Below the pieces are notes generated by a model that worked only from the letters and a program-made list of their open reading frames with translations, had not been told where the DNA came from and ran no database searches. From assembly GCA_016184225.1 (NCBI GenBank), contig JACPDA010000005.1:67590-131589 (forward strand): a DNA stretch of 64,000 nt, in the 5' to 3' direction. Below are positions 11,040-62,263 of the stretch, piece after piece (positions within the stretch are counted from its first letter, which is position 1; every line of letters begins with the position of its first letter). Both the position numbers and the translations under genes were made by a program. The DNA is from Candidatus Daviesbacteria bacterium (lineage in GTDB: Bacteria > Patescibacteriota > Microgenomatia > Daviesbacterales > UBA10151).

Positions 11040-13858
11040 TACAGAAGATAAGAGTGCAAACAATTGGACAACCCAATATTAAAGTTTACCGGTTGGAAGG
11101 GATATCAGTAAAAGATGCTAAAATTCTGGCTGAAAAATTATTGTCAGAGCGAATTAATCAAAAATACACAATAAATCAGCCTATTGCCCGCGGCAAAGTT
11201 ATTGAAATCGCCTATAAACCTGGTGTGATGAATCCGGAGGTGGTATCGATAACCAAAGCTGCATCTGATTTGGGGATTAAACTTATTTCCTGCGACAGTT
11301 CCATTGAATACCTCAGTCAAAAAGTTTCCTTTAATCCTTTAACAGAACACATAATTACAGAAGAACCAAAAACTCTGATTTTAAAAGCTAAACCCGGAAA
11401 GACACAAATTATTTCTATAAGAAATTTGACTGACCAGCAGTTGTTGGATTTATCCAAAGATACGCTTTTCCTTAATTTGGAAGAGATGAAAAAAGTCCAG
11501 AAGTATTTCCAAAAAATAAAAAGAGATCCGTCAGATTTGGAGCTTGAGACTTTAGCCCAAACTTGGAGTGAGCATTCCGGCCATAAAACTTTTAAAGCGG
11601 ATTTAATAATAGACGGTAAGGAAAAAGAACCCCTGATGACTCGGCTGAAAAAGGAAGCCTTAAAACATGATAAAAATATTGTTTCTGCCTTTGTTGATAA
11701 TTCCGGTGTGATGGATTTTTACGACGGTTTTGGGATTTGCGGTAAAGTAGAAACTCATAATGCCCCTTCAGCAATCGAACCTTACGGCGGGGCCATGACT
11801 GGTTCAGGCGGAGTATTCCGGGATATTGCTGCTACTGGTAAAGGCGCAAAAAACATTGCCTCAACAGATGTCTTTTGTTTTGCTCCATTGGATTTATCAG
11901 CTAATGAATTGCCCATGGGGTGTTTGCCGCCTGAATATTTACTAAAAAGGGTTGTGGCCGGTGTCAGGGATTATGGTAATAGGATGGGAATTCCCACTAA
12001 TAATGGCTCAGTTCATTTTCACAAAGATTTCCGGGCCAAGCCTTCGGTGATTGTAGGGGCCTTTGGAATTGTTCCCAAAAAATATGCCAAAAAGGAAAAG
12101 CCAAAAGTGGAAGATCTGATAATTACAATCGGCGGCAGAACAGGTAGGGATGGAATTCATGGGGCTACATTTTCTTCCGGAGAAATGACTGAGAAAACAA
12201 TTGAAGTGCATTCTTCCGCAGTCCAAATTGGCAATGCTATTGAAGAAAAAAGGATGTTTGATGCGCTATTGGAGGCGCGTGATCAGGATTTAATAAGGTT
12301 GGTGCAGGATTGCGGCGGAGGAGGATTTTCCTCAGCAATTGGGGAAATAGGTGAGGAGTTGGGGGTCTTGATTGACCTTAAAAATGCTCCTTTAAAATAT
12401 CAGGGTTTAGCTCCTTGGGAAATTTGGATGTCAGAGTCACAAGAGCGGATGATTGTGGTTTTAGAAAAAATAAACCTGAAGAAATTTGAGGATATTTGTA
12501 AAAAGTACAATGTGGAATTTGCAGTTTTGGGAAAGTTTGATGGAAGTAAGAAATTGAATGTGACTTTTGAAGGTAAAGTAGCTGGTGATTTAGACATGCA
12601 ATTTCTTCATCATGGGTTACCAAAAAGGATTCTAATAGCAAAAAAATCAAATCGTCATTCTGGGGAGCAAAGCGACTCCAGAATCAAAAAAGGATCCTGG
12701 ACAAGCCAGGATGACAGAGTGGAACAGCCTAAGACTGAAAGAGAATGGATAAAGGTTTTAGAAAAAGTGCTAGCTCATGGAAATGTTAATTCCAAAGAAC
12801 CAATTGTTAGATTGTATGATCATTCAGTTCAAGGGACAAATGATCTGCAGTCTTATTCGGGAACTAATTTAGATGGGCCAAATGATTCACCGGTTCTCCG
12901 CCCTTTTCTTGATAAGAAGTATGGCATGGTAATTTCCCATGGATTAAATCCTGTCTTAAATAATATAGATCCGTATTGGGGGAGCATCTGGGCGGCAACA
13001 GAAGCACTCTCCAATTTTGTAGCAGTCGGAGGGAATTACAAAGAAGCTTGCTTAATTAATAATTATATTTGGCCATTTCCGGATGAGCAGTCTCTTTGGT
13101 CTTTAGATAGGTCGGTTGATGCGGTTGTAGATTTTATGAAAACTTTCAAGATTCCTGTAATTTCTGGGAAAGACAGTTTGTCCTCGTCTTACAGAAGCAA
13201 AGATGGAAAAGTAATTAAAATCCCACCTGTACTTTGTATCTCCGTTTTGGGAAAAATTCCTGATGCCGGAAAAACTGTTACTGCAGATTTTAAACGCAGT
13301 GGTTCAACAATTGTTTTAGTAGGTAAAATGGATAAGAATCTTGGAGGCTCTGTTTATTATCAAGTACTTTACCCTGAGCGAGCGGAGCAAGTCGAAGGGC
13401 CAAAAGTTGATTTGAAGATTTTGCCAAAGACTTTTGATGCAATTTGCAAAGGGATACAGACTGGTAAGATTCTATCTTCCCATGATGTTTCGGAAGGTGG
13501 CGTAATTGGGGCTATTTTTGAAATGTGTGTAGGCGGAGGAATGGGAGCGACCATTCACCTCGGAGGAGTAACTTCGTCACACCTCCGAGGTGACCGAATG
13601 GGCTCCTCGGAGGTGGAATTCTTGTTTAATGAAACAGCAGGGTGTTTTATTGTGGAGGTGGAAAATGAAAGTATGGCAAAACAACTTTTTAAGAATGTGC
13701 CATTTAGGATTTTAGGTAAAACAAAAGAAGGAAATAAAATGGAAATATATGGAAATAAGACAAGCTTGCCGCTTCGCGATAAAAAGAAATTATTTGTTGT
13801 GGATGTAAATGATTTGAAGAAAGTTTGGCAGGAACCAATGAGGAGGTTATTCCCATGA
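11036..13858 (+). CDS. purL: FGAM synthase synthetase subunit PurL with a PurS-like N-terminal domain
   Basis: The AIRS-like PurL core (HSGHKTFKA…NAPSAIEPYGGAMTG) is preceded by about 170 aa resembling the PurS / large-PurL N-terminus (YKPGVMNPEVVSITKAASDLGI). It contains an in-frame repeat-element insert (RHSGEQSDSRIKKGSWTSQDD). Confidence 0.85.
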   Translation: MIQKIRVQTIGQPNIKVYRLEGISVKDAKILAEKLLSERINQKYTINQPIARGKVIEIAYKPGVMNPEVVSITKAASDLGIKLISCDSSIEYLSQKVSFNPLTEHIITEEPKTLILKAKPGKTQIISIRNLTDQQLLDLSKDTLFLNLEEMKKVQKYFQKIKRDPSDLELETLAQTWSEHSGHKTFKADLIIDGKEKEPLMTRLKKEALKHDKNIVSAFVDNSGVMDFYDGFGICGKVETHNAPSAIEPYGGAMTGSGGVFRDIAATGKGAKNIASTDVFCFAPLDLSANELPMGCLPPEYLLKRVVAGVRDYGNRMGIPTNNGSVHFHKDFRAKPSVIVGAFGIVPKKYAKKEKPKVEDLIITIGGRTGRDGIHGATFSSGEMTEKTIEVHSSAVQIGNAIEEKRMFDALLEARDQDLIRLVQDCGGGGFSSAIGEIGEELGVLIDLKNAPLKYQGLAPWEIWMSESQERMIVVLEKINLKKFEDICKKYNVEFAVLGKFDGSKKLNVTFEGKVAGDLDMQFLHHGLPKRILIAKKSNRHSGEQSDSRIKKGSWTSQDDRVEQPKTEREWIKVLEKVLAHGNVNSKEPIVRLYDHSVQGTNDLQSYSGTNLDGPNDSPVLRPFLDKKYGMVISHGLNPVLNNIDPYWGSIWAATEALSNFVAVGGNYKEACLINNYIWPFPDEQSLWSLDRSVDAVVDFMKTFKIPVISGKDSLSSSYRSKDGKVIKIPPVLCISVLGKIPDAGKTVTADFKRSGSTIVLVGKMDKNLGGSVYYQVLYPERAEQVEGPKVDLKILPKTFDAICKGIQTGKILSSHDVSEGGVIGAIFEMCVGGGMGATIHLGGVTSSHLRGDRMGSSEVEFLFNETAGCFIVEVENESMAKQLFKNVPFRILGKTKEGNKMEIYGNKTSLPLRDKKKLFVVDVNDLKKVWQEPMRRLFP
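12654..12715. repeat. Dispersed palindromic repeat family 2 (GTCATTCTGG…GACTCCAGAATC…GATYCTGGACAAGCCAGRATGAC), in-frame in purL
   Basis: gtcattctggggagcaaagcgactccagaatcaaaaaaggatcctggacaagccaggatgac. Confidence 0.75.
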
Positions 13859-16781: not shown

Positions 16782-18164
<1,383 letters not shown>

Positions 18165-20272: not shown

Positions 20273-21802
20273 ATGGAAAAATATGCCTTACTCTCGGTAT
20301 ATAATAAGGAAGGTATATCTGACTTTGCAAAGGTATTAGAGAAGTTGGGATACAAAATTATCTCCACTGGCGGTACTTATGAACAGTTAAAAAAGAACGG
20401 TATTGATGTTACCCCAATTGATGAGATAACCGGTAACCCCAGAGACTCCTTTGACGGCCGGATGAAAACTATTAGTTTTCAAATTGAGTCGGGAATTTTG
20501 TTTGACCGGAGAAATCCTAAGCATGTAGAAGAGGCCCAAAAATTGGGGGTACCGCAAATAAACATTGTGATATGCAACCTTTATCCGTTTGAAGAAAAGC
20601 CTGGCATTGAAACAATCGATGTCGGAGGGCCAACCATGATTAGGGCTGCAGCTAAAAATCATGTAAATGTTTTGGTGGTGGTTAGTCCTGCTGATTATGG
20701 TATGGTGGCAGATGCTTTAGAAAAGGGGAAAGTTACAGAAAAATTAAGGAAAGAATTGGCTGCTAAAGCTTTTTATCATCTATCTTTTTACGATTCTCAA
20801 ATCGGTAACTTTTTCAGTAGCGAGAGGTTTCCCAAAGAACTCACTATACCTCTTAGAAAAACTAATGTTCTCCGCTATGGGGAAAATCCCCATCAAGAAG
20901 GAGCCCTCTATCTTATGCCAAAAACCAATTCTCCTTTTGCAAAATTAAAACACCTTTGGGGAAGGGAACTTTCCGGCACCAACATTGGTGATATTCAAGC
21001 AGGACTGGAAACTGTCAGACAATTTAAGGAACCGGCAGCCGCAGTTATAAAACATTTAAGCCCTTGCGGAATAGCTACCGGCAAAGATGCTTTCGAGGCT
21101 CTGTACCGGGCAACCGAAGCAGACCCTGTTTCCGCATTTGGAGGGGTAGTGGTATTAAATAAGCCCATGGATTTAGAGGCTGCAAAGAATATTGCCACGT
21201 TTAAAAATGAAAGAGAAGGAAATACTGATATTGTGGCAGTTCCATCAATTTCGCCTGATGCTTTGGAATTACTGAAAAAAGTCAGAAAGAGTATGGGAGT
21301 TTATACATTTGGTGAAATTCCAAGGGAAAGAACTGAAAGATGGGACTTAAAATATTTTGCCGGAGCAGTATTACTTCAGGATTTTGATGATGATGTTGAC
21401 AAAAGTTTTAAGGCCTGGAAAGTTGTAACTAGAAATAAACCGACAGAGAAACAACTTGAGCAAATGAAATTTGGTTTTAAAGCAGTGAAAGCTGTCAGGT
21501 CTAATGCCGTGATAGTAATTGATAAAGATATTCCGATGACCCGCGGGATTGGTTCCGGACAAACTTCACGCGTAGGTGCTACCAAGATTGCCCTGGAGCA
21601 AGCAGGAAAATTAGCAAAAGGTGGTATCCTAATAAGTGACAGCTTTTTTCCGTTTGAAGATTCAGTGGAAATGGCAGCAAAATACGGAATCGGAGCCATT
21701 CTGGAGCAAGGGGGTTCTGTTAATGATCAGGCATCTGTGACGGCCGCAGATAAGGCAGGTATCCCGATGGTATTTACCGGAAGGAGGGCATTCAGACACT
21801 AA
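20273..21802 (+). CDS. purH: Bifunctional AICAR transformylase / IMP cyclohydrolase
   Basis: MGS-like N-domain (ALLSVYNKEGI) plus an AICARFT C-domain, about 509 aa. Confidence 0.85.
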   Translation: MEKYALLSVYNKEGISDFAKVLEKLGYKIISTGGTYEQLKKNGIDVTPIDEITGNPRDSFDGRMKTISFQIESGILFDRRNPKHVEEAQKLGVPQINIVICNLYPFEEKPGIETIDVGGPTMIRAAAKNHVNVLVVVSPADYGMVADALEKGKVTEKLRKELAAKAFYHLSFYDSQIGNFFSSERFPKELTIPLRKTNVLRYGENPHQEGALYLMPKTNSPFAKLKHLWGRELSGTNIGDIQAGLETVRQFKEPAAAVIKHLSPCGIATGKDAFEALYRATEADPVSAFGGVVVLNKPMDLEAAKNIATFKNEREGNTDIVAVPSISPDALELLKKVRKSMGVYTFGEIPRERTERWDLKYFAGAVLLQDFDDDVDKSFKAWKVVTRNKPTEKQLEQMKFGFKAVKAVRSNAVIVIDKDIPMTRGIGSGQTSRVGATKIALEQAGKLAKGGILISDSFFPFEDSVEMAAKYGIGAILEQGGSVNDQASVTAADKAGIPMVFTGRRAFRH

Positions 21803-23214
21803 TGAAAGTGCAAAGTGCAAAGTGCAAAGTGCAAAGTTATGATAGTTACCAATCACCATTTTCTTGGAGATATGGATCAGAAAAAATGAGAGAGATATTC
21901 TCAGAAGAGAAGAAATATAAACTTTGGAGAAAGATTTGGGTAGCTCTTGCAAAAGCACAAGCAAAAGAAGGTTTGGTATCAAAAGAAGAACTGGCAGACC
22001 TGGAAAAAAATCAAGACAACATAGATATCGAACGGATTTGGGAAATTGAAAAAGATACCTGGCATGACACCGTAGCGGCAATAAAAGAATTTGCTGAGAA
22101 AGCCAAAATCGGCGGCGGCAAAATACACCTCGGTGCCACTTCCATGGATATTTCCGATAATGCTGAAACTATTAGGATTAGGGAAGCCTTGGATATAGTT
22201 GAAAAAAGACTCGTAGCTTTGCTACTCGCGCTTTCTTCGAAAGTAAAAAAATATGCTAACTTTCCCTGTATGGGGTATACCCATCTGCAGCCGGCAGAAC
22301 CAACAACCTTAGGATATAGATTTGCTTTCTACGCCCAGGATCTTTTAATGGATCTGGAACTTTTAAGATTTGTTAAGAAGAATTTAAAGAGTAAAGGTTT
22401 AAAGGGCGCAGTCGGAACATCAGCCAGTTATGTTAAATTGTTGGATAGGAAAAAAGCAGAAGAGATGGAAGTTAGGATTTTAAGGGAGTTAGGGGTAGAA
22501 GCATTTGAAATTACCAATCAAACTGCGTCCAGAAAGATAGAATTTTGGGTAGCCAGCTTACTCGCGGGAGTTGCACAGTCCTTGAATAAATTTGCCTTTG
22601 ATTTAAGGATTATGCAGTCACCCGGGTTTGGTGAATGGCAGGAGCCGTTTGGAGTTTTGCAGGTTGGTTCATCCGCAATGCCTTTTAAGAAAAATCCTAT
22701 TAAAGCAGAACAAATTTGTTCTTTGTCCAGGCTGGTGGTGAATTTATCAAAGACTGCCTGGGATAATGCTTCCATGATGTTACTTGAGCGGACTCTGGAT
22801 GATTCGGCTAACAGAAGAGTAGTAATTCCGGAAATGTTTTTGGCAATTGATGAAATGCTAAATTCTACCGCAAATATTGTTGAAGGATTAATTGTAAATG
22901 ACAAACAAATAATGAGAAATTTGGAAAAATATTGGCCTTTTTCTGCAACAGAAGGAATTATTCTGGAAGCAGTAAAACAGGGGGCAGACAGACAAAAAAT
23001 GCATGAGGCGCTCAGAGAAATTGCCATGAGAGCGTGGAAGTCTATCCAAGAAGGGAATCCAAATCCAATACAGGATTTATTAGAAGAAAATTCCACTATT
23101 AAACAGTACTTAAAACCAATAGAAATAATAGAAGTTCTGGATGCAAAAAATCATGTTGGTAATGCAAAAGAAAAAGCTTTGACTTTGGCGGATCAAATTG
23201 ATAGATTGACATAA
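21802..23214 (+). CDS. purB: Adenylosuccinate lyase
   Basis: Fumarate-lyase family with a PurB N-terminus (SWRYGSEKMREIF). The first codons are a heptanucleotide tandem repeat (MKVQSAKCKVQS). Confidence 0.85.
   Translation: MKVQSAKCKVQSYDSYQSPFSWRYGSEKMREIFSEEKKYKLWRKIWVALAKAQAKEGLVSKEELADLEKNQDNIDIERIWEIEKDTWHDTVAAIKEFAEKAKIGGGKIHLGATSMDISDNAETIRIREALDIVEKRLVALLLALSSKVKKYANFPCMGYTHLQPAEPTTLGYRFAFYAQDLLMDLELLRFVKKNLKSKGLKGAVGTSASYVKLLDRKKAEEMEVRILRELGVEAFEITNQTASRKIEFWVASLLAGVAQSLNKFAFDLRIMQSPGFGEWQEPFGVLQVGSSAMPFKKNPIKAEQICSLSRLVVNLSKTAWDNASMMLLERTLDDSANRRVVIPEMFLAIDEMLNSTANIVEGLIVNDKQIMRNLEKYWPFSATEGIILEAVKQGADRQKMHEALREIAMRAWKSIQEGNPNPIQDLLEENSTIKQYLKPIEIIEVLDAKNHVGNAKEKALTLADQIDRLT
21804..21838 (+). 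repeat. Heptanucleotide tandem repeat (CAAAGTG x about 5) within the first codons of purB
   Basis: gaaagtgcaaagtgcaaagtgcaaagtgcaaagtt. Confidence 0.8.
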
Positions 23215-24955: not shown

Positions 24956-25456
24956 ATGATAAAGAAAAATTCATTAAGTTATTTTTTGCTTCTTGGTTTG
25001 GAGAAATCGATTCAGAGTGGCGTTTTGCTAATTGATTTTGCCTACAATTCCCACTGGTATGTTTATCCCGGGCGAGACCCAAGAGATATAAATTACGGCG
25101 CTCTTTATCAGGCAGTTAGGGATTTGCGTGAGAAAGGCTTTATTGAAACCGAAAAAGACGGCAGAAAAATTATGTTGAAATTAACAGATAAAGGTAGGGA
25201 AGAGGCAATAGTAAAAAAGCTCTTAGCAGAAGAGAAATGGGATAGGAAGTGGAGAATTGTTATTTTCGATGTTCCGGAAAAGCACCGGAAATTAAGAAAA
25301 ATCTTGCGGAGTAAACTTAGGGAGTGGGAATTTGAGCCTTGGCAGAAAAGTGTTTGGGCAGGTAAAAAGGATGTAACAAGTCCATTGCGAAATTTTATTA
25401 AAGAGGTTGGTTTATCTGATTGGGTAAGGGTGGTAGTCGGTGCTGATGTAGCTTAG
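24956..25456 (+). CDS. Short PaaX-family-like transcriptional regulator (wHTH plus WDGKW-motif domain)
   Basis: Matches the PaaX N-terminus/middle region (…KWDRKWRIVIFDVPEKHRKLRKILRSKL…QKSVWAG). Paralog of 59013..59507. Confidence 0.6.
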   Translation: MIKKNSLSYFLLLGLEKSIQSGVLLIDFAYNSHWYVYPGRDPRDINYGALYQAVRDLREKGFIETEKDGRKIMLKLTDKGREEAIVKKLLAEEKWDRKWRIVIFDVPEKHRKLRKILRSKLREWEFEPWQKSVWAGKKDVTSPLRNFIKEVGLSDWVRVVVGADVA

Positions 25457-38977: not shown

Positions 38978-40378
38978 ATGAAACTTAAGAATTTCATTTT
39001 TCTTATTGCAACATTCATATCATTTTTGATAGGGGCCCAGGTATCTCCGGCAGTTTTTGGTGCAACGCCCACACAGTATGGCTTTACATTTCCAGTTGGC
39101 GAGCTGAATAACTGTGCAACTGTGGCAGAATGCGGAAATTACTGTGAGAAAGACGGTAATCTTCCGGCGTGCATGGCATTTGTGAAAAAGTACAAAATTA
39201 CCAAAGATGATGTATTAACATTCACTATTGATGAACTGGGTAATTGTCAGATGGGTTCTGATTGCCGCAATTTTTGCAACCGTGACGAAAATATTACCAA
39301 ATGCATTGATTTTGCCGATAAATATGACCTGCTTTCTACCAGCAATCTTGAACTGGCGCAGAAATTTGCCAAAGCAGTTGGTTCCGGAGGTGGGCCGGGG
39401 GGCTGCAGGAGCCTTGAGCAGTGTGACCGCTATTGTGACATAAGTGAACATACCAACGAATGTCTTGACTATGTGGGCAAGAAGGATTTATTACCACGTA
39501 ATGAATTGGCACAAGTTCGCAAAGTGGCAGAGGGTTTTAGACAGGGAATAGAAACCCCGGGTAAGTGTCGTGATTACACGGAGTGCAATGTTTATTGTAC
39601 TGATTCTAGCCACTCTAACGAGTGCGGAGTTTATGCTGTAAAGGTTGGTTTTATCACAACCGAGGAGGCAGAACAGGCCAAAAAATATGGCGGAACCGGT
39701 CCTGGAGGTTGTAAATCAGAGCAAGAATGTAGCGCTTTTTGTCAACAGCCATATAATCAGAGAGTCTGCTTAAGTTATGCAAACGAACATAATATAAAAG
39801 TAGATTTTAAAGGACCCGGCGGTTGTAGTGATATTTCATCCTGCACATCTTACTGTACTAAAAGTAAGTCTGATCCAGAGTGTCAAAAGTACGCTAGTCA
39901 ATACCAAGGATTTAAAGGGCCTGGCGGGTGTGAGGATGAAGCCTCCTGCAAAACTTATTGTCAGGCTAATCCTGCTGATGCGGAATGTAAACAATATGCC
40001 GGTCAATATGGCGGATTTTCCGGACCTGGAGGGTGTAGTGATGTAGGATCTTGTACTGCCTATTGTAAAGATCACTATCAAGATCAAGAATGTCAAAAAT
40101 ACTCAAGCCAGTATGGTGGAGGATTTTCCGGGCCTGGCGGGTGTAATTCAGAAAGCTCATGTAAAGCTTACTGCACTGCCAACTCTGGGGATGCAGCCTG
40201 TAAACAATATGCCGGTCAATATGGCGGATTTTCCGGACCTGGTGGGTGTACGGATGAGGCTTCTTGTACCTCTTACTGTAAGTCAAACCCCAAAGATTCA
40301 GCTTGTGCCCCATATGTTGGCCAGTATAAAGATCAATACCAACAGCAAAATCAGCAACAACAACCTCAACCACAATAG
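38978..40378 (+). CDS. Secreted cysteine-rich tandem-module protein (about 10 modules of GPGGC-x5-C-x3-C-x8-C…QYGGF, Q-rich tail)
   Basis: Signal peptide; about 30-aa modules with 4 Cys each repeated head-to-tail, ending QQQNQQQQPQPQ. Confidence 0.6.
   Translation: MKLKNFIFLIATFISFLIGAQVSPAVFGATPTQYGFTFPVGELNNCATVAECGNYCEKDGNLPACMAFVKKYKITKDDVLTFTIDELGNCQMGSDCRNFCNRDENITKCIDFADKYDLLSTSNLELAQKFAKAVGSGGGPGGCRSLEQCDRYCDISEHTNECLDYVGKKDLLPRNELAQVRKVAEGFRQGIETPGKCRDYTECNVYCTDSSHSNECGVYAVKVGFITTEEAEQAKKYGGTGPGGCKSEQECSAFCQQPYNQRVCLSYANEHNIKVDFKGPGGCSDISSCTSYCTKSKSDPECQKYASQYQGFKGPGGCEDEASCKTYCQANPADAECKQYAGQYGGFSGPGGCSDVGSCTAYCKDHYQDQECQKYSSQYGGGFSGPGGCNSESSCKAYCTANSGDAACKQYAGQYGGFSGPGGCTDEASCTSYCKSNPKDSACAPYVGQYKDQYQQQNQQQQPQPQ
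39380..40335 (+). repeat. Tandem roughly 90-bp coding repeats inside the Cys-rich protein gene
   Basis: Recurrent ggacctggnggntg…caatatggcggattttccgg blocks seen directly. Confidence 0.6.
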
Positions 40379-43020: not shown

Positions 43021-43581
43021 ATGGCCTCAAGATCTTGGAATAGAGTAGAACTAATAGGTAATTTAACCAGGGACCCGGAACTTCGATATACCCCTAATGG
43101 TGCTGCTGTTTGTACTTTTGGCATGGCCACCAACCGCACTTATGTGACTGAGGGCGAGAGAAAAGAAGAAGCAGATTTTCACAGATTAGTGGCCTGGAAT
43201 AAACTGGCTGAACTTTGTAATCAACTTTTGAAAAAGGGCAACCGGGTTTTTGTTTCCGGAAGGCTGCAGACCCGGTCCTGGGAAGGCCAAGATGGTCAAA
43301 CCAGAAACGTTACGGAGATTGTGATAGAGGATATGATTTTGCTGACTCCTAAAAGTAACGGAGATTATACACCGGTACCGGAAGATGTGGGGGTAGAGCC
43401 GGTTAAAGTAAAAGAGTCGAAGGAGTCAGAGGAGCCGGAAGAATCAAAGGCAGAGAAAAAGACAGAAATTCAAAAAGAAGAGCCTAAAGAAAAAGAAGAA
43501 CCAAAGACAGAATCCTTCGACTCCGCTCAGGACAAGAAAGCCGCCCCCAAAGAAGAAGTAGAGGATGATCTTCCATTCTAA
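43021..43581 (+). CDS. ssb: Single-stranded DNA-binding protein
   Basis: OB fold (VELIGNLTRDPELRYTPNGAAV) and an acidic tail ending DDLPF. The tail includes a dispersed-repeat core (ESFDSAQDK). Confidence 0.9.
   Translation: MASRSWNRVELIGNLTRDPELRYTPNGAAVCTFGMATNRTYVTEGERKEEADFHRLVAWNKLAELCNQLLKKGNRVFVSGRLQTRSWEGQDGQTRNVTEIVIEDMILLTPKSNGDYTPVPEDVGVEPVKVKESKESEEPEESKAEKKTEIQKEEPKEKEEPKTESFDSAQDKKAAPKEEVEDDLPF
43514..43533. repeat. Family 1 core in-frame in the ssb C-terminal tail
   Basis: tccttcgactccgctcagga, translated SFDSAQD. Confidence 0.6.
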
Positions 43582-48300: not shown

Positions 48301-48552
48301 ATGGTAACTAAAGAAAATGGGGAAAAATTGGAAAGGGTTATTTCTTTAAAGGAGACATTAGGGGCAGAATTAAATAGAATTAAAAGGGAGAAGGAAATGG
48401 GCGTACCATTGGAAGATTCCTTTGAAAGCTTACTGAGAGTAGTTGAAGTATTAGTTGGGCAGATCAAAGACGAAAATCCATTTGGTCAAATATCGAAGGT
48501 AGACCCACTGAAGCCGCGGGTTGGTGGGTTCATACCGCCGGAACATCATTGA
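48301..48552 (+). CDS. Hypothetical small protein (83 aa)
   Basis: ORF only; its end overlaps prmC on the opposite strand. Confidence 0.25.
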   Translation: MVTKENGEKLERVISLKETLGAELNRIKREKEMGVPLEDSFESLLRVVEVLVGQIKDENPFGQISKVDPLKPRVGGFIPPEHH

Positions 48553-49279
48553 TAATAAGTACCCTTTGTTTTTTGGCAAGGTCGGTTTTGACCTCTACTT
48601 TTGCTTGGGGAAAATATTTTTGGGCTTCATTTGCTGCCAGTTCTCCGTGGGTATAGTCAATTTCTCCGATAATCAATTTAGGTTTCCAACCTACACTCCA
48701 GGAGTGTAAGTTCGAATTCACTCCTGGAGTGGAAAGCTGTTTGATCTGTTGGAAAAGTTTCCGGTAAAGTTCAAAGCCATCTTCTCCGCCGTCCAAGGCA
48801 ACATGTGGTTCAAAGTCTTTGACTGAAGAGTCTAAATAAGGAATCCTGGCAGAAGGGATGTAAGGTAAGTTAGTGACAATGACTAGGTTACAGGTTTCAG
48901 GGTACAGGTTACAGTTTAACCCGGAAAGCAAATTACTTTTTAAAAAAGTGATTTTATCTTCAACTCCATGGAGTTTGGCATTTTGTCTGGCTACTTTTAA
49001 AGCTTTCTGGGAAATATCTGAAGCAATAATAGTTACGTTTACACCCTTGGGGTGGAGGCTTAGGTTTTTGGCAATGGAAATGGCAATGTTGCCGGAGCCG
49101 GTGCCAAGGTCTAAAATGAGGTTACAGGTTTCAGGGTACAGGTTACAATAATTTAAAACTTCATCTACTAAAAGTTCTGTTTCCGGGCGGGGGATTAGAA
49201 CATCAGGAGTGACTTTGAAACGTAATTTGTAAAATTCAACCCAACCTTTAATGTACCCAGAGGGCTTTGATGATGTCAT
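48530..49279 (-). CDS. prmC: Release-factor glutamine N5-methyltransferase
   Basis: SAM motif (LDLGTGSG) and an NPPY-type motif (TNLPY). Carries two in-frame copies of a 29-bp repeat ([10 protein letters not shown]). Confidence 0.8.
48886..48914. repeat. Repeat family 3 (GGTTACAGGTTTCAGGGTACAGGTTACAG), in-frame in prmC
   Basis: Translated on the minus strand as [10 protein letters not shown]. Confidence 0.7.
49120..49147. repeat. Family 3 second copy, in-frame in prmC
   Basis: ggttacaggtttcagggtacaggttaca, translated [10 protein letters not shown]. Confidence 0.7.
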
Positions 49280-50198
49280 CCATATCTCCTTCTAAGATCC
49301 TATCCAGATTATGCCAGGATTTACCAATCCGGTGGTCAGTCACCCTGTTTTGGGGGAAGTTATAAGTTCTGATTTTTTCACTTCGCTCACCGCTTCCCAC
49401 TTGGGCAGACCTTTGAGCCTCAATATTTCCCACCTTTTTCTGTTGCTCCATTTCCCAAAGTTTAGCCCGCAAAAGCGATAGGGCGTTTTCCCTGTTTTGC
49501 AGTTGGGATCTTTCAGTTTGGGCTGTGACTACAGTTCCTGTTGGGATATGCTTAAGCCTGACGGCAGTGGAGACTTTATTAACATTCTGGCCTCCGGCAC
49601 CGCCGGAGCGGAAAGCTTCAAATTCTATATCAGATGGGTTAACAATAACTTGAGTTTTATTAACTTCCGGAAGCACTGCTACTGTTGCAGTTGAAGTATG
49701 GATTCTCCCCGAAGATTCTGTAACAGGTACTCTTTGTACCCGGTGTACACCGGACTCAAACTTTAGGCTGTTGTATGAATCTTTGCCGGAGATTTTGAGT
49801 ACAAGTTCTTTAATTTGTCCAAGGTTGCCCTCTGACCTGTTTAACTCCTCAACTTTCCACTTGCGGTTTTGAGCAAATCTGGTATACATCCTGCTTAAAT
49901 CCCCGGCAAACAGCCCGGCCTCATCTCCGCCGGCAGCGCTCCTTATTTCCAAAATACAGCTATCAGCATTCAGTATCGCTTCGCTGTCAGCTGTCAGACT
50001 TTCTGAATTCTCTGACGACTGACGACCGGTACCAACCGAAGGTTGGTGGACTGACGACTCTAGTTCACTTTTTTGTTTCTCAAGTTCAACAATTTCCTCC
50101 CTGGCCAATTCAGCCATGTCAGGATCCTCGGTTAAAGACTTAAGGTCTTGAATTTTTTTGTTTATTTGATCAATTTGGTCTTTTAGGTAATCGTTCAT
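49248..50198 (-). CDS. prfA: Peptide chain release factor 1
   Basis: PVT tripeptide motif and GGQ. It has an extra N-terminal segment ([12 protein letters not shown]) encoded by a palindrome flanked by direct repeats. Confidence 0.85.
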
Positions 50199-50203
50199 AA
50201 AAG

Positions 50204-50272
50204 TTTACAGGGTACAGGTTTTAGGTTACAGATAGGTGAAGCTACTGTCAACTGTTCACTGTAACCTGTCAC
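50204..50272. repeat. Family 3 variant copy plus an inverted partial copy in the rpmE-prfA spacer, ending 6 nt upstream of the prfA start codon
   Basis: tttacagggtacaggttttaggttacag … ctgtaacctgtcacc. Confidence 0.55.
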
Positions 50273-50599
50273 CTAACTAGAGGCTTGTTTGCGGGCTTGC
50301 ATCAACAAATCCTTTAGTGATGGCCGTTCTTTCTTTTTCTCTTCAACTTTAGATTTTCTAGCTTCCAGAATTCTCATTCTTTCTTCCTGTTTAACTTTAG
50401 AGCTTTCGGTTTTCTTCACAAACCTGTCAACTTGTCCTAAAGTGTCAACAAACTTCTGCTGACCGCTGAAAAAGGGATGGCAGGCACTGCAAATTTCCAC
50501 GCGAATTGCCGGCACTGTTGAGCCGGTGGTAAAAGTATTTCCGCAAGCACAAGTAACCTTAGCCTCCGGATACCAAGTTGGATGAATATCTGCTTTCAT
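50273..50599 (-). CDS. rpmE: 50S ribosomal protein L31 with a basic C-terminal extension
   Basis: L31 core with a CxxC…C zinc ribbon (CACGNT…CSACHPF). Confidence 0.85.
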
Positions 50600-50605
50600 A
50601 ATGGA

Positions 50606-50697
50606 GCATAGTATAGCAAAAATAGTGACTAGAGTCGAGAGTCAAGAGTCTAGACTTAAAAATTCCTAAACTCTAGAACCTAGCAACTAGACTCTAT
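50606..50697. repeat. Family 4 copy B between eamA and rpmE
   Basis: Shares the atagtgactag / gagtcaag / tctagac / actctaga / actcta blocks with copy A. Confidence 0.6.
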
Positions 50698-51625: not shown

Positions 51626-51631
51626 ATTGAG

Positions 51632-52045
51632 TTAAGAGTTACGAGTTAAGAGTGCAGAATTATTTCTGGATTTCTTCAGAATCGTAACCAGTATTCTTAT
51701 TATTTCATCATTTTCCTTTAAAAGTAAACCTAACTTCTTAGAGGGAATTAGTTGTGATCGGGAAAGAATCGTTAACCAATAATAGGTTTCCCTTGCTTCT
51801 TTTAAGGAGATGTTGACTAAGTGTATAAAATCTTTTCTGGAGGCAGCACTTTGAGCTTCTTGTAAGTTTGCTCCAATAGATGTTCCGGACCTTACTACTT
51901 GTGATGCTAAAGCATAACCAGCAGGAGTTTTCGGTAAGGAGTTAACCATGTAAACAATTCTTACTGCAAATTCTATGGATCTTTCTGCGATTCCAATTCT
52001 TAACTCTTCACTCTGCACTCTGAATTCTCCTGATGGCTTCGTCAA
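51632..52045 (-). CDS. Four-helix-bundle protein (23S rRNA intervening-sequence protein family)
   Basis: Family-typical sequence (…SIGANLQEAQSAASRKDFIHLVNISLKEARETYYWL…). The N-terminal region overlaps the hisS 3' end by about 37 nt. Confidence 0.65.
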   Translation of the reverse strand: MTKPSGEFRVQSEELRIGIAERSIEFAVRIVYMVNSLPKTPAGYALASQVVRSGTSIGANLQEAQSAASRKDFIHLVNISLKEARETYYWLTILSRSQLIPSKKLGLLLKENDEIIRILVTILKKSRNNSALLTRNS

Positions 52046-55443: not shown

Positions 55444-56169
55444 TTATTTTTTCTTTCCAGTGGGAGTGGCAGACTGGGTGGCTACCTTTTTGGGTTTTAT
55501 TATTCCGCCTTGAGGTATCACATAAACAAATCCAGCTTCGAAAATTTCATTCTTATTTTTGCTTCCCGTGAGTATCACAAAATCTTTTAACTTTACCGTC
55601 GCTGAGGTGGGCAAACTGACGGCTACATTTTGGAAGTTTTTATCCTTGAGGGTAATTAGCTCGTCAGAGATAGAGATTACCTGGCCCCAAAAGTAAGTTT
55701 TTGGTTCTAAGTTAGGAGTTGGCAGTAAGATAATTTTTTTAGCTGTCAGTACGCCTGTTTCGTCAATATCGCCCAAAGCCGCAATATAGTCATCTTCCGC
55801 AATTGCCTTCAGAGAGAATTTAGTTTTTCCTTTAATTTTGCTTTCAAAAACAGTATCCTGATTGATGCTGATTATTTTGGGTCCGGATGCGGCTGCTAAA
55901 GTTAGGGAAGTTTCCGAACTTGCTTTAACCATGCCTGTGTAAGCTTTATCTTTCAGTTTGTGGTTAACCTCTTGTTTTAATTTAGCGGCCTTTGAAGCAA
56001 TTTCCTTTTTTAGTTCCTCCAGTTTGGCCTTAATGTCGGCAGAAGGGGTGGAATCAGCAGCATAGGTAGGGTATAGGGTATAGGGTATAGGGTATAGGAA
56101 AACAAAAAATACAAAAAATAAGGCAATTATTTTACTAGTGGCTAACCCCCAAACCCTAAACCCTCTCAT
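55444..56169 (-). CDS. Hypothetical secreted/anchored protein (241 aa)
   Basis: N-terminal hydrophobic segment. The N-terminal codons include a heptanucleotide tandem repeat (YPIPYTLYPTY). Confidence 0.4.
   Translation of the reverse strand: MRGFRVWGLATSKIIALFFVFFVFLYPIPYTLYPTYAADSTPSADIKAKLEELKKEIASKAAKLKQEVNHKLKDKAYTGMVKASSETSLTLAAASGPKIISINQDTVFESKIKGKTKFSLKAIAEDDYIAALGDIDETGVLTAKKIILLPTPNLEPKTYFWGQVISISDELITLKDKNFQNVAVSLPTSATVKLKDFVILTGSKNKNEIFEAGFVYVIPQGGIIKPKKVATQSATPTGKKK
56063..56098. repeat. Heptanucleotide tandem repeat (GGGTATA x about 4.5) inside the N-terminal coding region of ORF 55444..56169
   Basis: taggtagggtatagggtatagggtatagggtatagg. Confidence 0.8.
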
Positions 56170-58818: not shown

Positions 58819-58902
58819 TGCCGAGGGAGGGAGTCGAACCCTCATGATCTTTAGGACCAAAGGTTTTTGAGACCTTCGCGTCTGCCATTCCGCCACCTCG
58901 GC
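58819..58902 (-). tRNA. tRNA-Leu (anticodon CAA), type II with a long variable arm; CCA not encoded
   Basis: The reverse complement folds into a cloverleaf: acceptor GCCGAGG/CCUCGGC, anticodon loop CUCAAAA, T-arm GAGGG-UUCGACU-CCCUC, discriminator A. Confidence 0.8.
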
Positions 58903-58974
58903 AATAAAAGTACTTGAGGTATTATATCAAGTTTAACTTGATGAAAAAAGGATAAAGAGGAAATTAAAGTCTGT

Positions 58975-59004
58975 ACAAATGTCCTCCGATCGTGGTACAT
59001 TTGT
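58975..59004. promoter_or_regulatory. Palindrome ACAAATGT-CCTCCGATCGTGGT-ACATTTGT overlapping the promoter (TGtGATAAT) of PaaX-like gene 2
   Basis: 8-bp arms around a CGATCG core; the ATG follows within about 9 nt. Confidence 0.5.
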
Positions 59005-59012
59005 GATAATAT

Positions 59013-59507
59013 ATGGCACGACCACCAAGCAAGCGAAAGGTTCTAACAGATTTAGTTCTTTTAGCTTTAGAGAAATCAATTGACGGGTATGTAGCGTTTG
59101 AAGATTTCATTTACAATCCACTGCTAGAAAGACCTGTTAAAAAATCAGTCCTTTCTCAGGTTATAAAAAGACTTCGGGATCAAGGTTTAGTGGAGTTTAT
59201 TAGTGATAATGAGTTAATTTTAAGATTGACTGATTCTGGTAGAGATAAAGCGCTATGGAAGAAGATGGCTCTCGGAGATGAGAAATGGGATGGGAAATGG
59301 CGGCTGGTAATATGGGATGTGCCGGAAAAAAGGAGATTGGCTAGGGATTTACTAAGGTTTAAACTTAAACAGTTAGGTTTTAAACAGTGGCAAAAAAGTG
59401 TTTGGGCTTCAAAGATAAACTGTACTAAGTTATTACGAGATTTTATCAAGCAAGTAGGAATAGAGGATTGGGTGATGGTGATTGAATCCGATAACGTAGG
59501 AGTTTAA
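59013..59507 (+). CDS. Short PaaX-family-like transcriptional regulator (paralog of 24956..25456)
   Basis: KWDGKWRLVIWDVPEKRRLARDLL…QKSVWASK; N-terminal wHTH. Confidence 0.6.
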   Translation: MARPPSKRKVLTDLVLLALEKSIDGYVAFEDFIYNPLLERPVKKSVLSQVIKRLRDQGLVEFISDNELILRLTDSGRDKALWKKMALGDEKWDGKWRLVIWDVPEKRRLARDLLRFKLKQLGFKQWQKSVWASKINCTKLLRDFIKQVGIEDWVMVIESDNVGV

Positions 59508-59508
59508 A

Positions 59509-59538
59509 CATTTGTCCTCCGATCGTGGTACAAATGTG
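59509..59538. promoter_or_regulatory. Near-identical palindrome ACATTTGT-CCTCCGATCGTGGT-ACAAATGT immediately downstream of PaaX-like gene 2
   Basis: Same 14-nt core in direct orientation with the arms swapped. Confidence 0.5.
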
Positions 59539-59590
59539 ACAAACAATGCAATCTAGACTTTTTTAACCGATTTATGTATAAGTTACTTCT

Positions 59591-62263
59591 ATGAATAAAT
59601 CTACAAAAAATGAAGTCAGGCTTCCGGTGCATGTTAAGCCTGAGCGGTACAGGATTATGCTCCGGCCGGATCTGGAGGGGTTTACATTTTACGGCGAAGA
59701 AACAATTTTTTTGGTTTTAGAAAAGCCCACCAAACAAATTACCCTGCATGCTGCTGAGCTGGAGATAGAATCGGCAGAATTTATACATGGTAACAAAGAG
59801 GTATGGGCTGGGAGGATTAATTATGATAAAAAAGCGGAAACTGCTACATTTACTTTTGCTAAAAATATTCAAAAAGGCAAAGGACAATTAAAGCTTGCTT
59901 TTAAGGGAATCTTGAATGATAAAATGCGGGGCTTTTACCGTTCCCGCTATGAAGTGAGTGGAGTATCAAAGCATCTGGCTACTACCCAGTTTGAATCAAC
60001 TGATGCCAGGAGGGCTTTTCCCAGCTTTGATGAACCCGCTCAAAAGGCTGTTTTCGATGTGACTTTAGTGGTTCCTGCCAAGACTGTGGCTATCTCCAAC
60101 ACCATTGAATCTAACATCCGAGAACATGAAAGCGGTTACAAGGTAATAGAGTTTGCCCCAACCCCGAAAATGTCTACTTATCTTTTAGCCTTTATTGTGG
60201 GGGAGTTTGAGAGTGTAGAAGTGCAAAGTGCAAAGGGCAAAGTGATAAGGGTTTTTACCACACCGGGTAAAAAAGAACAAGCCAGATTTGCCCTTGATGT
60301 AGCCGGAAAATGCTTGGATTTCTATGAACAATACTTTGGTATCTCTTACCCTTTGCCGGTGTTGGATCTTATTGCAATACCTGATTTTGCTGCCGGGGCC
60401 ATGGAAAACTGGGGAGCAGTGACATATCGCGAATCTTTGCTGTTAATTGATGAGGAGGCTTCCTCCACTGCCAATAAACAATGGGTGGCTTTAGTGATTG
60501 CCCATGAGCTGGCTCACCAGTGGTTTGGCAATTTAGTCACTATGGAGTGGTGGACCCACCTTTGGTTAAATGAAGGTTTTGCCTCATTTATTGAATTCTT
60601 GGCTATTGACCATATTTTCCCGGAGTGGGATATCTGGACCCAATTTGTAGGGAGCGAAATGGGTGAAGCTTTCTCGCTGGACGGCTTAAAAAACACCCAC
60701 CCGATTGAGGTGGAGGTGGGCCATCCGGCCGAGATTTCCGAGATTTTTGATAAGGTCAGCTATTCCAAAGGAGCCTCAATTCTGCGTATGCTTATGTCTT
60801 ATCTGGGGGAAAAAGATTTTCAAAAAGGGTTGCAATTTTATCTTAAAAAACATGCTTATGGAAATGCGGAGACCCAGGATTTGTGGAAAGCATTGGAAGA
60901 AGTTTCCGGGAAACCTGTTGGCAAGCTGATGAAAAACTGGACCTCAAAGCCCGGACATCCGGTGATAAGGTTACAGTCAACAGGCAGCAGGCTACAGTTA
61001 ACACAAAGCAGGTTTTTCTCCTCTCCAATTTCTAAAAGAAAGACGAAAGATGGTGCTGTCTGGAGTATTCCTATCACTGTCATTCTGGGGAGTTCTGCAA
61101 GGCAGAACGACTCCAGAATCGATTCTGGACAAGCCAGAATGACTAATCTATTAATGAATAAAAAATCCATGACTATTTCAGGAATTAAAGATAACGAGTG
61201 GATTAAATTAAATGCCGGGGAGGCGTCATTAGTTAGAGTTGATTATCCGCAGGAATATCTCAAGAAGCTGGAAGAGGCGGTTAAGAATGGAAAACTGCCT
61301 GCAGTGGACAGGTTGGGCCTAATCAGAGATTCTTTCTCTTTGGCAGAGTCAGGTCAAAGCCCAACCACTTTATCTTTGGAGCTGACTCAAAGTTACATGG
61401 GTGAAGAAGATTATACTGTTTGGGCTGAGCTGACGGGAAAACTGCTGCAGCTTGATTCTCTTTTAGCTCTGGAACCATTTTATCCGGATTTCAAAAAATA
61501 CGGCATAAAGATTTATCAAGATATAGGGGGTAAGCTAGGCTGGAAAGCAAGAAAAGGAGAAAAGCATACAGATTCCCTGCTGCGGGGTATGGTTTTAAAT
61601 ATGCTGGGAGGGTTTGGAGATGGGGAGACTATAAAGGTGGCTCAGGAATTATTTAGAGCTTATGTAGTACGTCATTCTGGGGAGCGCAGCGACTCCAGAA
61701 TCAAAGGGGGGGATTCTGGACAAGCCAGAATGACAAGTAGTCACGGCATTCATCCTGATTTAAAGGGAGTTGTTTACAATTTGGTGGCGGAAAACGGTGG
61801 AAAAAAAGAATTCGATACTTTGATGAAGATGTACAAGCAAGAGGAAAATCAACAGGAAAAAGATCGGATTGGCCGGGCTTTGGGGAAGTTTAAAATTAAA
61901 GCCCTTCTTTCTAAAACCCTGGATTTTTCTATTTCCAAGCATGTGAGATTCCAAAACAGTCTGCAAATTATTGCAGCTGTTTGGGCTAATCCGGTCGGCC
62001 GTTATCTGGCCTGGGAGTTTGTAAAAAAGAATTGGAAATTGTTAAAAGATAGGTATGCAGGGGGCCATTATTTTACCAAAGTTTTTGGACCGGCCGGAAG
62101 CTTTACCAAAAAAGTTGATGCCAAAGATATTGAATCCTTTGTCAAGAAAAATCCTGTCCCGGAAGCCAAAAGAACCATTGCCCAAGCCTTGGAACAGATT
62201 TATTCCAATGCAGAGTGGCTAAAAAGGGATAGACAGAAAATCAAAGATTTTCTGTTAAGATAA
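59591..62263 (+). CDS. pepN: Aminopeptidase N (M1 family)
   Basis: GAMEN and HELAHQW…E zinc motifs. Carries two in-frame palindromic repeat inserts (SSARQNDSRIDSGQARMT; RHSGERSDSRIKGGDSGQARMTS). Confidence 0.9.
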   Translation: MNKSTKNEVRLPVHVKPERYRIMLRPDLEGFTFYGEETIFLVLEKPTKQITLHAAELEIESAEFIHGNKEVWAGRINYDKKAETATFTFAKNIQKGKGQLKLAFKGILNDKMRGFYRSRYEVSGVSKHLATTQFESTDARRAFPSFDEPAQKAVFDVTLVVPAKTVAISNTIESNIREHESGYKVIEFAPTPKMSTYLLAFIVGEFESVEVQSAKGKVIRVFTTPGKKEQARFALDVAGKCLDFYEQYFGISYPLPVLDLIAIPDFAAGAMENWGAVTYRESLLLIDEEASSTANKQWVALVIAHELAHQWFGNLVTMEWWTHLWLNEGFASFIEFLAIDHIFPEWDIWTQFVGSEMGEAFSLDGLKNTHPIEVEVGHPAEISEIFDKVSYSKGASILRMLMSYLGEKDFQKGLQFYLKKHAYGNAETQDLWKALEEVSGKPVGKLMKNWTSKPGHPVIRLQSTGSRLQLTQSRFFSSPISKRKTKDGAVWSIPITVILGSSARQNDSRIDSGQARMTNLLMNKKSMTISGIKDNEWIKLNAGEASLVRVDYPQEYLKKLEEAVKNGKLPAVDRLGLIRDSFSLAESGQSPTTLSLELTQSYMGEEDYTVWAELTGKLLQLDSLLALEPFYPDFKKYGIKIYQDIGGKLGWKARKGEKHTDSLLRGMVLNMLGGFGDGETIKVAQELFRAYVVRHSGERSDSRIKGGDSGQARMTSSHGIHPDLKGVVYNLVAENGGKKEFDTLMKMYKQEENQQEKDRIGRALGKFKIKALLSKTLDFSISKHVRFQNSLQIIAAVWANPVGRYLAWEFVKKNWKLLKDRYAGGHYFTKVFGPAGSFTKKVDAKDIESFVKKNPVPEAKRTIAQALEQIYSNAEWLKRDRQKIKDFLLR
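61079..61143. repeat. Family 2 copy, in-frame in pepN (variant left arm)
   Basis: gtcattctggggagttctgcaaggcagaacgactccagaatcgattctggacaagccagaatgac. Confidence 0.75.
61671..61734. repeat. Family 2 copy, in-frame in pepN (near-perfect palindrome)
   Basis: gtcattctggggagcgcagcgactccagaatcaaagggggggattctggacaagccagaatgac. Confidence 0.8.

Follow-up and report, generated by a model that had tools for sequence, protein, structure and literature searches.

The gene prmC of a Candidatus Daviesbacteria bacterium contains two 29-base copies of one sequence, each of which is a run of four heptanucleotides translated as part of the release-factor glutamine N5-methyltransferase PrmC. The gene lies in a 64,000-nucleotide stretch of contig JACPDA010000005.1, which was analyzed as a whole and is referred to here as the window. 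The copies are probably heptanucleotide microsatellites that became trapped in two sequence-tolerant loops of the enzyme and are kept in frame by selection. From the comparisons presented below we infer that slippage and gene conversion are the processes behind the arrays, that the arrays are trapped, and that the encoded peptide has no function. The host gene and its two arrays are located as follows:

48530..49279, minus strand: prmC (HemK), an open reading frame (ORF) of 249 amino acids for the release-factor glutamine N5-methyltransferase, hosting both arrays.
49119..49148, minus strand: site-1 array, four heptamers plus TC, encoding residues 45-54, which are followed by ILDLGTGSG.
48885..48914, minus strand: site-2 array, four heptamers plus TA, encoding residues 123-132, which are followed by VIVTNLPY.

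The exact 29-mer GGTTACAGGTTTCAGGGTACAGGTTACAG is found at 48886-48914, and the second copy, with one mismatch (last base A), at 49120-49148. These are the only two copies in the window, and the number of matches expected by chance is 0 (dinucleotide shuffles). The four tandem heptamers read GGTTACA GGTTTCA GGGTACA GGTTACA on the plus strand and TGTAACC TGTACCC TGAAACC TGTAACC in the sense direction; Tandem Repeats Finder reports period 7 with 4.9 copies at 48885-48918 and 4.1 copies at 49119-49147 (81% matches). The ribosome reads such a heptamer run with a period of 21 nt (seven residues), and both copies encode the identical 10-residue peptide. A perfect run of TGTAACC would give an in-frame TAA, at the place of which the codon here is TAC. 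Coordinates and translation thus confirm what a first-pass annotation of this DNA had reported, namely a 29-bp repeat read in frame ahead of two motifs of PrmC. In four independent assemblies, each from a different sequencing run, stretches of 1.5-6.6 kb that include both copies match the window with 100% identity, and the repeats are therefore not an assembly artefact.

The ORF matches Pfam methyltransferase families as well as the sequences of solved HemK structures, and a database protein 100% identical to its product bears the name peptide chain release factor N5-glutamine methyltransferase, Candidatus Daviesbacteria. For the AlphaFold (AF2) model of the protein (predicted local distance difference test, pLDDT, 79.6) the best Foldseek matches are the HemK/PrmC structures 1sg9, 1nv8 and 2b3t (PrmC-RF1). 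The gene overlaps the end of prfA and lies downstream of rpmE (gene order rpmE-prfA-prmC). PrmC has a class I methyltransferase fold with motif I present as LDLGTGSG, and its catalytic motif is NLPY, a variant of the canonical NPPY that is invariant in 43 aligned Daviesbacteria orthologs. NLPY is also common in more distant Patescibacteria PrmC loci, and the Daviesbacteria PrmC is devoid of the N-terminal helical domain of E. coli PrmC. In the model, site 1 takes in the last part of helix 32-47, the loop 48-53 and, of strand beta1 (54-58, LILDL), the first residue; site 2 lies within the long loop 115-131 (pLDDT about 59) and includes the first residue of strand beta4 (132-136, LVIVT).

The repeats had been described as inserted twice, at positions where other PrmC proteins have shorter loops. 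This description did not survive the comparison with other PrmC proteins. In alignments with solved PrmC proteins, the gaps at the two sites amount to no more than 0-3 residues, by which the solved proteins are shorter, and among 119 Daviesbacteria orthologs the median length of repeat-coded and non-repeat loops is the same, 14 vs 14 and 18 vs 18 residues at the two sites. Since loops encoded by arrays do not exceed the non-repetitive ones in length, no net insertion has taken place; the arrays are the loops themselves. No site residue is conserved, since Cys and Tyr alternate at the sites (TGT/TAT), and whole peptides are replaced between orthologs. In the six pairs of orthologs that share at least 8 of the 10 site residues, 44 of 50 codons are identical, while the conserved motifs next to the sites give 103 of 197 (p about 9e-8; the pairs are not independent). 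As orthologs sharing the peptide also share its codons, the arrays appear to be maintained at the nucleotide level, and as far as the sequences can tell this indicates maintenance of DNA and not of a protein motif. The suggestion that the repeat is a DNA-level feature and no conserved motif of PrmC is borne out by the free replacement of residues and by these shared codons. An earlier version of the codon test, with pairs picked after viewing the sequences (49 of 52 codons identical), was dropped as biased, one of its pairs having come from a nucleotide search.

Furthermore, the 29-mer does not make up an independent 29-bp repeat family, as had been suggested; its unit is the heptamer, which belongs to a genome-wide and lineage-wide class of period-7 repeats. 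An array detector (21-nt windows with at least 17 matches at a given lag) found 13 period-7 segments in the window, corresponding to about 10 arrays, vs 0.05 in shuffles, and other periods from 3 to 15 gave 0-2, in agreement with Tandem Repeats Finder. The same sole enrichment of period 7 is seen in 94 other loci.

The recurrence of such arrays at the PrmC sites was analyzed in the 120 best PrmC homologs, all Daviesbacteria-like with 59-76% identity by BLASTP, and in 80 PrmC loci from a metagenome scan (35-76% identity). Many of the Daviesbacteria-like homologs have heptad-periodic peptides at exactly sites 1 and 2. At site 1 about 26% of the orthologs have at least three identities at lag 7, and at site 2 about 25%, vs 3-5% after shuffling, and in the site-1 loop of Daviesbacteria the amino-acid identity is 19% at lag 7 vs 5-8% at other lags. 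On the level of the ortholog DNA, at least eight different units occupy the same PrmC sites (TATACCC, CAACTAC, GTATTAA, GTCACCA, CAGTAAT, AATTTCC, ACTCACT and CAAACAC), and some orthologs hold perfect arrays of 4-5 units. PrmC harbors 35 of the 78 arrays of the PrmC loci in 7.3% of their DNA (p about 1e-19), which amounts to 0.68 arrays per kb as compared to 0.022 in other coding and 0.31 in intergenic sequence. Within PrmC, arrays recur at four positions, near residues 46-52, 75-81, 116-131 and 171-193; by the model, positions 46-52 and 116-131 sit just upstream of strands beta1 and beta4. Conservation of the peptide in PrmC of distant lineages, which would have spoken against the first-pass reading, is seen in part. 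Several Daviesbacteria species (67-76% identity) have the peptide itself or something close to it at these sites, and PrmC proteins at 35-47% identity as well as those of Bacteroidota hold analogous heptad-periodic peptides from other heptamers there.

Two further repeats in prmC genes are recorded here. In prmC of locus L021, the site-1 array (GTATTAA/GTATTAT, 10129-10166) and the site-2 array (CATAATA/CAAAATA, 10351-10394) are reverse complements, and the two loop-coding sequences could pair in the mRNA, unlike the direct repeats in the window. The window gene itself carries a perfect 12-nt inverted repeat with a 12-nt spacer at 48695-48706 and 48719-48730 (ACTCCAGGAGTG ... CACTCCTGGAGT), which is read in frame as 13 residues (~183-195) in a part of low model confidence. 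This segment is missing from the ortholog consensus LFxQIxxxxWKPK, and other lineages have heptamer arrays at that position of PrmC.

The heptamer family extends to a second phylum. When 185,579 species genomes were scanned for the 22-nt core of the repeat, it was found in one related genome only (L012), at the orthologous prmC site. The remaining matches are 13 Bacteroidota loci (L001-L011, L013, L014; Niastella, Agriterribacter, Sphingobacteriales and others), where the core lies inside longer, apparently intergenic GGTTACA/GGTTTCA/GGGTACA/GGTTGCA arrays, often with an inverted partner, and keeps three different unit variants in the same order. With the exact 22-nt core in 13 Bacteroidota loci, the heptamer family is common to two unrelated phyla, which could be due to either convergence or transfer.

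One Niastella locus includes prmC (L010 3202-4104), in which an array of the CTTACCT type forms site 1 and is translated as SSYILPPTSYFS. A search with the Niastella PrmC returned 120 Niastella-group orthologs (P0121-P0240). Their site-1 loop is hypervariable, with 16-76 residues and 7-residue periodic peptides such as GSQKSEV, SYILPPT, NRQSAIG and RKYEVGNT, and its amino-acid identity at lag 7 is 22.5% vs 4-7% at other lags. The loop lengths cluster at 17, 24, 31, 38, 45 and 52 residues, 39 of 119 falling into one class modulo 7 (p 6e-8). Steps of seven residues equal three heptamers (21 nt) and are the only slippage steps that keep the frame. The Niastella-group loop before NPPY is conserved, unlike that of Daviesbacteria. 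Loop length in Daviesbacteria is unimodal, and the four assemblies of the window population are identical.

The identity of the two copies within one gene can be traced by the order of their unit variants. The order TGTAACC-TGTACCC-TGAAACC-TGTAACC is present at site 1 of the window, of L012/P0004 (identical 29 nt) and of L096 (one change), and on the protein level at site 1 of at least eight further species. At site 2, this order is confined to the window, L095/P0002 (identical) and L015/P0003 (2 nt different). Site 2 of L096 reads TGTCACC TGTTGCC TGTAACC TGTAACC, and many species have CNLLPVTCNL at this site. The simplest history for this distribution would be that gene conversion within prmC copied a short tract from site 1 onto site 2 in the ancestor shared by P0002, P0003 and the window genome.

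In the explanation that we favor, two surface loops upstream of beta1 and beta4 of the Rossmann fold would accept almost any sequence, at a fairly constant length in Daviesbacteria. Slipped-strand misalignment and short-tract conversion between units would create and re-homogenise the arrays, and selection would retain only in-frame, stop-free variants. The usual deletion bias could not remove such arrays without damage to the protein, and they would persist for a long time with drifting unit sequence as trapped microsatellites. The 10-residue peptide would be a by-product with no motif-specific role, and in the window genome the older site-1 array would have overwritten the array at site 2 by gene conversion.

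Several results weigh against this explanation. The array density in PrmC exceeds that of intergenic DNA, which simple tolerance does not predict, although trapping together with phylogenetic inheritance could explain the excess. Length polymorphism was not seen among the four assemblies of the window population. Sites 1 and 2 are not more alike within genomes than between genomes in the 120 orthologs (permutation p 0.26, and 0.49 without the window protein). This test gives no sign of routine concerted evolution of the two sites, and site-to-site conversion is therefore regarded as occasional and invoked for this clade only. PrmC arrays resemble the remaining arrays of their locus only weakly in unit sequence (5.0 vs 4.6 matches of 7, p 0.064), and no argument is built on this signal. 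When synonymous conservation is compared over all pairs of orthologs, array columns show no general excess (0.494 vs 0.484), and the shared-peptide test comprises only its six, mutually dependent pairs. Moreover, the 7-nt unit and the preference for PrmC are not explained by trapping in tolerant loops. We consider it rather improbable that the beta1 and beta4 loops of PrmC and the linker of RF1 are preferred targets of an active heptamer-writing process, or sites of positive selection, in at least two phyla. If they were, the arrays would belong to the translation-termination operon as a feature that is conserved, functional or mechanistically targeted, and would not be passive junk, one possibility being a slippage-based or RNA-level control of release-factor methylation.

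Three other explanations were weighed against trapped microsatellites. A 29-bp mobile element of the MITE (miniature inverted-repeat transposable element), repetitive extragenic palindrome (REP) or Rickettsia palindromic element (RPE) type could have been put independently twice into prmC and once into the rpmE-prfA spacer with the frame kept. Such an element would account for the identity of the two copies, which lie 234 bp from each other, and for the third, diverged one at a distance of 1 kb, and in-frame repeats have precedents such as the Rickettsia RPEs. However, the copies lack terminal inverted repeats and a palindromic body, being direct heptamers with the same GGTTACAG at both ends, and no target-site duplication is present in the flanks. 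There are two copies in 64 kb, and the 22-nt core occurs in one relative only, at the orthologous site, and otherwise in Bacteroidota arrays. The loops are no longer than in orthologs without the repeat, and the orthologous sites hold arrays of unrelated heptamers. A mobile origin fails every defining test that was run; it is largely refuted, and we give it hardly any weight. Hardly more can be said for selection on the peptide itself, in which the four cysteines (two C-x6-C pairs by beta1 and beta4) would bind a metal or form disulfides and thereby stabilise a PrmC without N-terminal domain. The peptides do precede beta1 and beta4, which are adjacent in the sheet of class I methyltransferases, and similar peptides recur in several species. 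Against this, Tyr freely replaces Cys (YTLYPIPYTL, NYTLSPKPYTL), wholly different peptides such as QLPTTNYQL, IKYYVLSIKG and VTSHQSPVTS are found at the same sites, and many orthologs are without a periodic peptide at one or both of them. Selection of this kind does not require identical codons (44 of 50), and model confidence in the site-2 loop is low. A role of the peptides as such is contradicted by their free replacement and very unlikely.

A role at the level of nucleic acid is unlikely, too, on the evidence at hand. The arrays could be factor-binding sites in the rpmE-prfA-prmC transcript, as proposed for the TAACTGA repeats described below, or act as a 7-nt slippage switch of PrmC and hence of release-factor methylation. 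Consistent with such roles, PrmC is denser in arrays than intergenic DNA, arrays are also present in RF1, the functional partner of PrmC, and the shared arrays are conserved at the nucleotide level. Several intergenic arrays adjoin start codons (prfA, the EamA-like gene, rpmE), as for TAACTGA (PMC4679880), the array upstream of rpmE contains a -35-like hexamer, and the perfect arrays of 4-5 units in some orthologs should slip readily. On the other hand, the unit sequence is wholly different between lineages, which makes a single sequence-specific binder unlikely. In the window the four units comprise three variants, an imperfection that suppresses slippage, and the four assemblies are identical. 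The hairpin of the rpmE-prfA spacer is no more stable than shuffles, and the arrays match no family in Rfam. Trapping in tolerant loops is thus retained as the probable explanation of the PrmC arrays.

Most of the other arrays in the window are intergenic, and several directly adjoin start codons, namely those of prfA, the EamA-like gene and rpmE. The diverged third copy and its inverted partner, noticed already in the first-pass annotation, are indeed present in the rpmE-prfA spacer, and other repeats of the window are likewise read in frame, as that annotation had held. The arrays in question are:

50203..50231, minus strand: diverged array in the rpmE-prfA spacer, plus strand GTTTACA GGGTACA GGTTTTA GGTTACA G, of the same unit family and 79% identical to the 29-mer (aligned at 50202-50230).
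50245..50273, minus strand: inverted partner array, plus strand CTGTCAA CTGTTCA CTGTAAC CTGTCAC C, adjoining the rpmE stop codon.
49983..50060, minus strand: heptamer remnants in prfA (RF1), with GCTGTCA x2 at 49983-49997, CTGACGA x2 at 50012-50026 and GGACTGACGACTC at 50048-60.
56063..56103, minus strand: GGGTATA x4.6 array (sense TATACCC) that follows the hydrophobic N-terminal segment of ORF 55444..56169 and is read in frame as LYPIPYTLYPTY.
60217..60249, plus strand: AAGTGCA x3.7 array, in frame as EVQSAKGKV, in the linker that joins the N-terminal domain of the M1 aminopeptidase 59591..62263 to its catalytic domain.
21801..21842, plus strand: AAAGTGC x4.7 array at the purH/purB junction, giving the PurB N-terminus MKVQSAKCKVQS if the ATG at 21802 is the start.

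On the mRNA strand, the spacer array at 50203-50231 stops 4 nt before the ATG of prfA. With the 13-nt gap between it and the inverted array at 50245-50273, an imperfect hairpin is possible; its RNA fold of -20.3 kcal/mol does not differ significantly from shuffles (z = -1.06). A function of this hairpin as a terminator was rejected on account of this stability and its absence from the terminator scan. An Rfam scan of the window had a tRNA as its only hit, and no Rfam family matches the arrays. The remnants in prfA, degenerate units of the GTCGTCA type, fall in an extra segment of 32 residues in RF1, and orthologous RF1 genes carry CAGTCAT/CAGTCGT arrays at this position (L012 1013-1048, L016 1259-1295, L022 8909-8940 and 9130-9165). 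Between the remnants lies a 17-nt palindrome, ACCAACC GAA GGTTGGT, at 50031-50047; the extra segment with this palindrome lies in the region that joins the N-terminal part of RF1 to the PCRF core. The unit TATACCC of the array at 56063..56103 is also found, with the peptide YTLYPIPYTL, at PrmC site 1 in L019/L026. The unit GGTTACA equals the fission-yeast telomere repeat unit, which we take to be a coincidence.

Upstream of rpmE, a promoter-like sequence is present on the minus strand at 50610-50638 (TCGACT, 17 nt, TG-TATACT), whose -35-like hexamer lies inside an AGAGTCA-type array (50623-50656) that is conserved in the relative L012 (388-415). Two arrays at 51629-51658 and 51994-52028, inverted relative to each other (GAGTTAA-type and TTAACTC-type), bracket ORF 51632..52045 on the minus strand. 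This ORF encodes a 23S-rRNA-intervening-sequence (four-helix-bundle) protein (PF05635, E 3e-23) and is situated between hisS and the ORF of a putative EamA-like membrane protein. The arrangement resembles a stem formed over a long range and enclosing a small gene that may be selfish.

A further ORF spans the two prmC copies on the opposite strand:

48873..49151, plus strand: antisense ORF of 92 amino acids with both ends inside the two arrays, judged to be an artefact.

The suspicion that this ORF is merely produced by the repeat proved justified. The GGTTACA strand is without stop codons in any frame, and in 18 of 23 orthologs the frame that corresponds to the antisense ORF contains 1-4 stops. 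This frame is stop-poor in all orthologs (0-4 stops vs 2-10 in the other two frames). Judged from the ortholog sequences, the antisense ORF is not conserved and is regarded as an artefact of the arrays.

Repeats of other kinds are present elsewhere in the window. A REP-like repeat unrelated to the heptamers, with a hairpin of complementary arms (CGTCATTCTGG...CCAGAATGAC), occurs in three places (12653-12715, 61088-61143 and 61670-61734). A sequence of 21-22 nt, TCCTGAGCGAAGTCGAAGGAT, and its complement are found on both strands at 2045-2065, 17017-17038 and 43512-43533 with 95-100% identity, as a further family of short dispersed repeats. In the region 39802-40281, a unit of about 105-108 nt (36 residues) is present in 2.7 tandem copies of 64-77% identity and probably represents a repeated protein module. 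The stretches 25228-25359 and 59276-59407, which are 34 kb apart, are 75-78% identical and apparently paralogous coding sequence. The latter stretch is flanked by a pair of 42-nt direct repeats (58968-59009 and 59501-59542, 81% identical) adjoining the only tRNA gene reported by Rfam, at 58819-58902 on the minus strand.

If the PrmC arrays are understood as trapped microsatellites, they have some bearing beyond this gene. A 7-nt unit should be the worst kind to carry in a gene, because each single-unit slip shifts the frame. Heptamer arrays nevertheless persist in a conserved enzyme, at the same structural positions, across the candidate-phylum radiation and Bacteroidota; the unit turns over and the array state stays. 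They thereby offer a natural system for the persistence and concerted evolution of microsatellites under a reading-frame constraint, as well as for the question whether the preference for 7 nt is mutational (a polymerase footprint) or selected. Since Niastella is cultivable, both are open to experiment. Hypervariable, insertion-like loops in proteins of uncultivated bacteria may also be translated microsatellites, which would confuse alignment, phylogeny and domain annotation.

Among known translated repeats, Rickettsia palindromic elements are found in conserved proteins at surface-exposed positions, with the function of the protein kept. They are about 100-150 bp long and palindromic, exist in many dispersed copies and lengthen the host protein. 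In contrast, the PrmC arrays are 28-30 bp of direct heptamers at orthologous sites and add no length. The intragenic repeats of the archaeal, extrachromosomal Borg elements have units that are, as far as is known, multiples of three, whereas the 7-nt unit in PrmC forces a reading period of 21 nt (seven residues). According to the account in PMC9879509, the perfect, fast-evolving tandem repeats within Borg ORFs create probably unstructured peptide segments.

Closer in kind are the dispersed heptanucleotide repeats of bacteria. As summarised in PMC4679880 and PMC4692102, heptanucleotides are the most abundant class of long simple sequence repeats in many bacteria, and polymerase slippage was proposed as their origin (Mrazek, Guo & Shah 2007). 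In these summaries, the repeats resemble ours as dispersed head-to-tail heptamers with an over-represented period of 7 that are mostly intergenic and vary between relatives. The predominantly intergenic location fits most arrays of the window, but both prmC copies are intragenic. Intragenic repeats there have mainly units that are multiples of three, in contrast to heptamers in frame in housekeeping enzymes here. As far as these summaries go, that literature did not cover Patescibacteria, and it is the recurrence at the same loops of one protein family across a deep phylogeny that sets the present arrays apart.

Direct repeats of the heptamer TAACTGA are common to Beggiatoaceae, Cyanobacteria and Bacteroidetes (MacGregor 2015, PMC4679880). 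Similar to the arrays described here, they comprise 2-6 copies, often lie directly upstream of start codons and have a unit common to distant phyla including Bacteroidetes, and a few lie in ORFs, translated as the 7-residue periodic LSVISYQ (PMC4679880). The units here are, however, GGTTACA, GGTTTCA and GGGTACA (sense TGTAACC type), and only the general behavior is in common. Where TAACTGA repeats were intragenic, they lay at the ends of proteins or within hypothetical ones, and not, as here, in orthologous internal loops of a conserved enzyme. The cyanobacterial short tandemly repeated repetitive (STRR) sequences and the GGGAATC and GGGGA(T/C)T repeats of Xanthomonas and Nostoc (Rehm 2015, PMC4692102) are likewise dispersed tandem heptamers, whose direct and inverted arrangements can form stem-loops and whose length and sequence vary among close relatives at the same intergenic position. 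The repeats described by Rehm differ by their quadruplex-capable G-tracts and their essentially intergenic location, whereas the G runs of the present units do not go beyond GG or GGG, and these units are translated. In the literature, no report was found of heptamer repeats in Patescibacteria or Microgenomates, or of repeats in PrmC/HemK. Overall, the over-representation of heptamers and the idea of slippage have already been published, and the in-frame recurrence of heptamer arrays in PrmC is the departure from the known cases.

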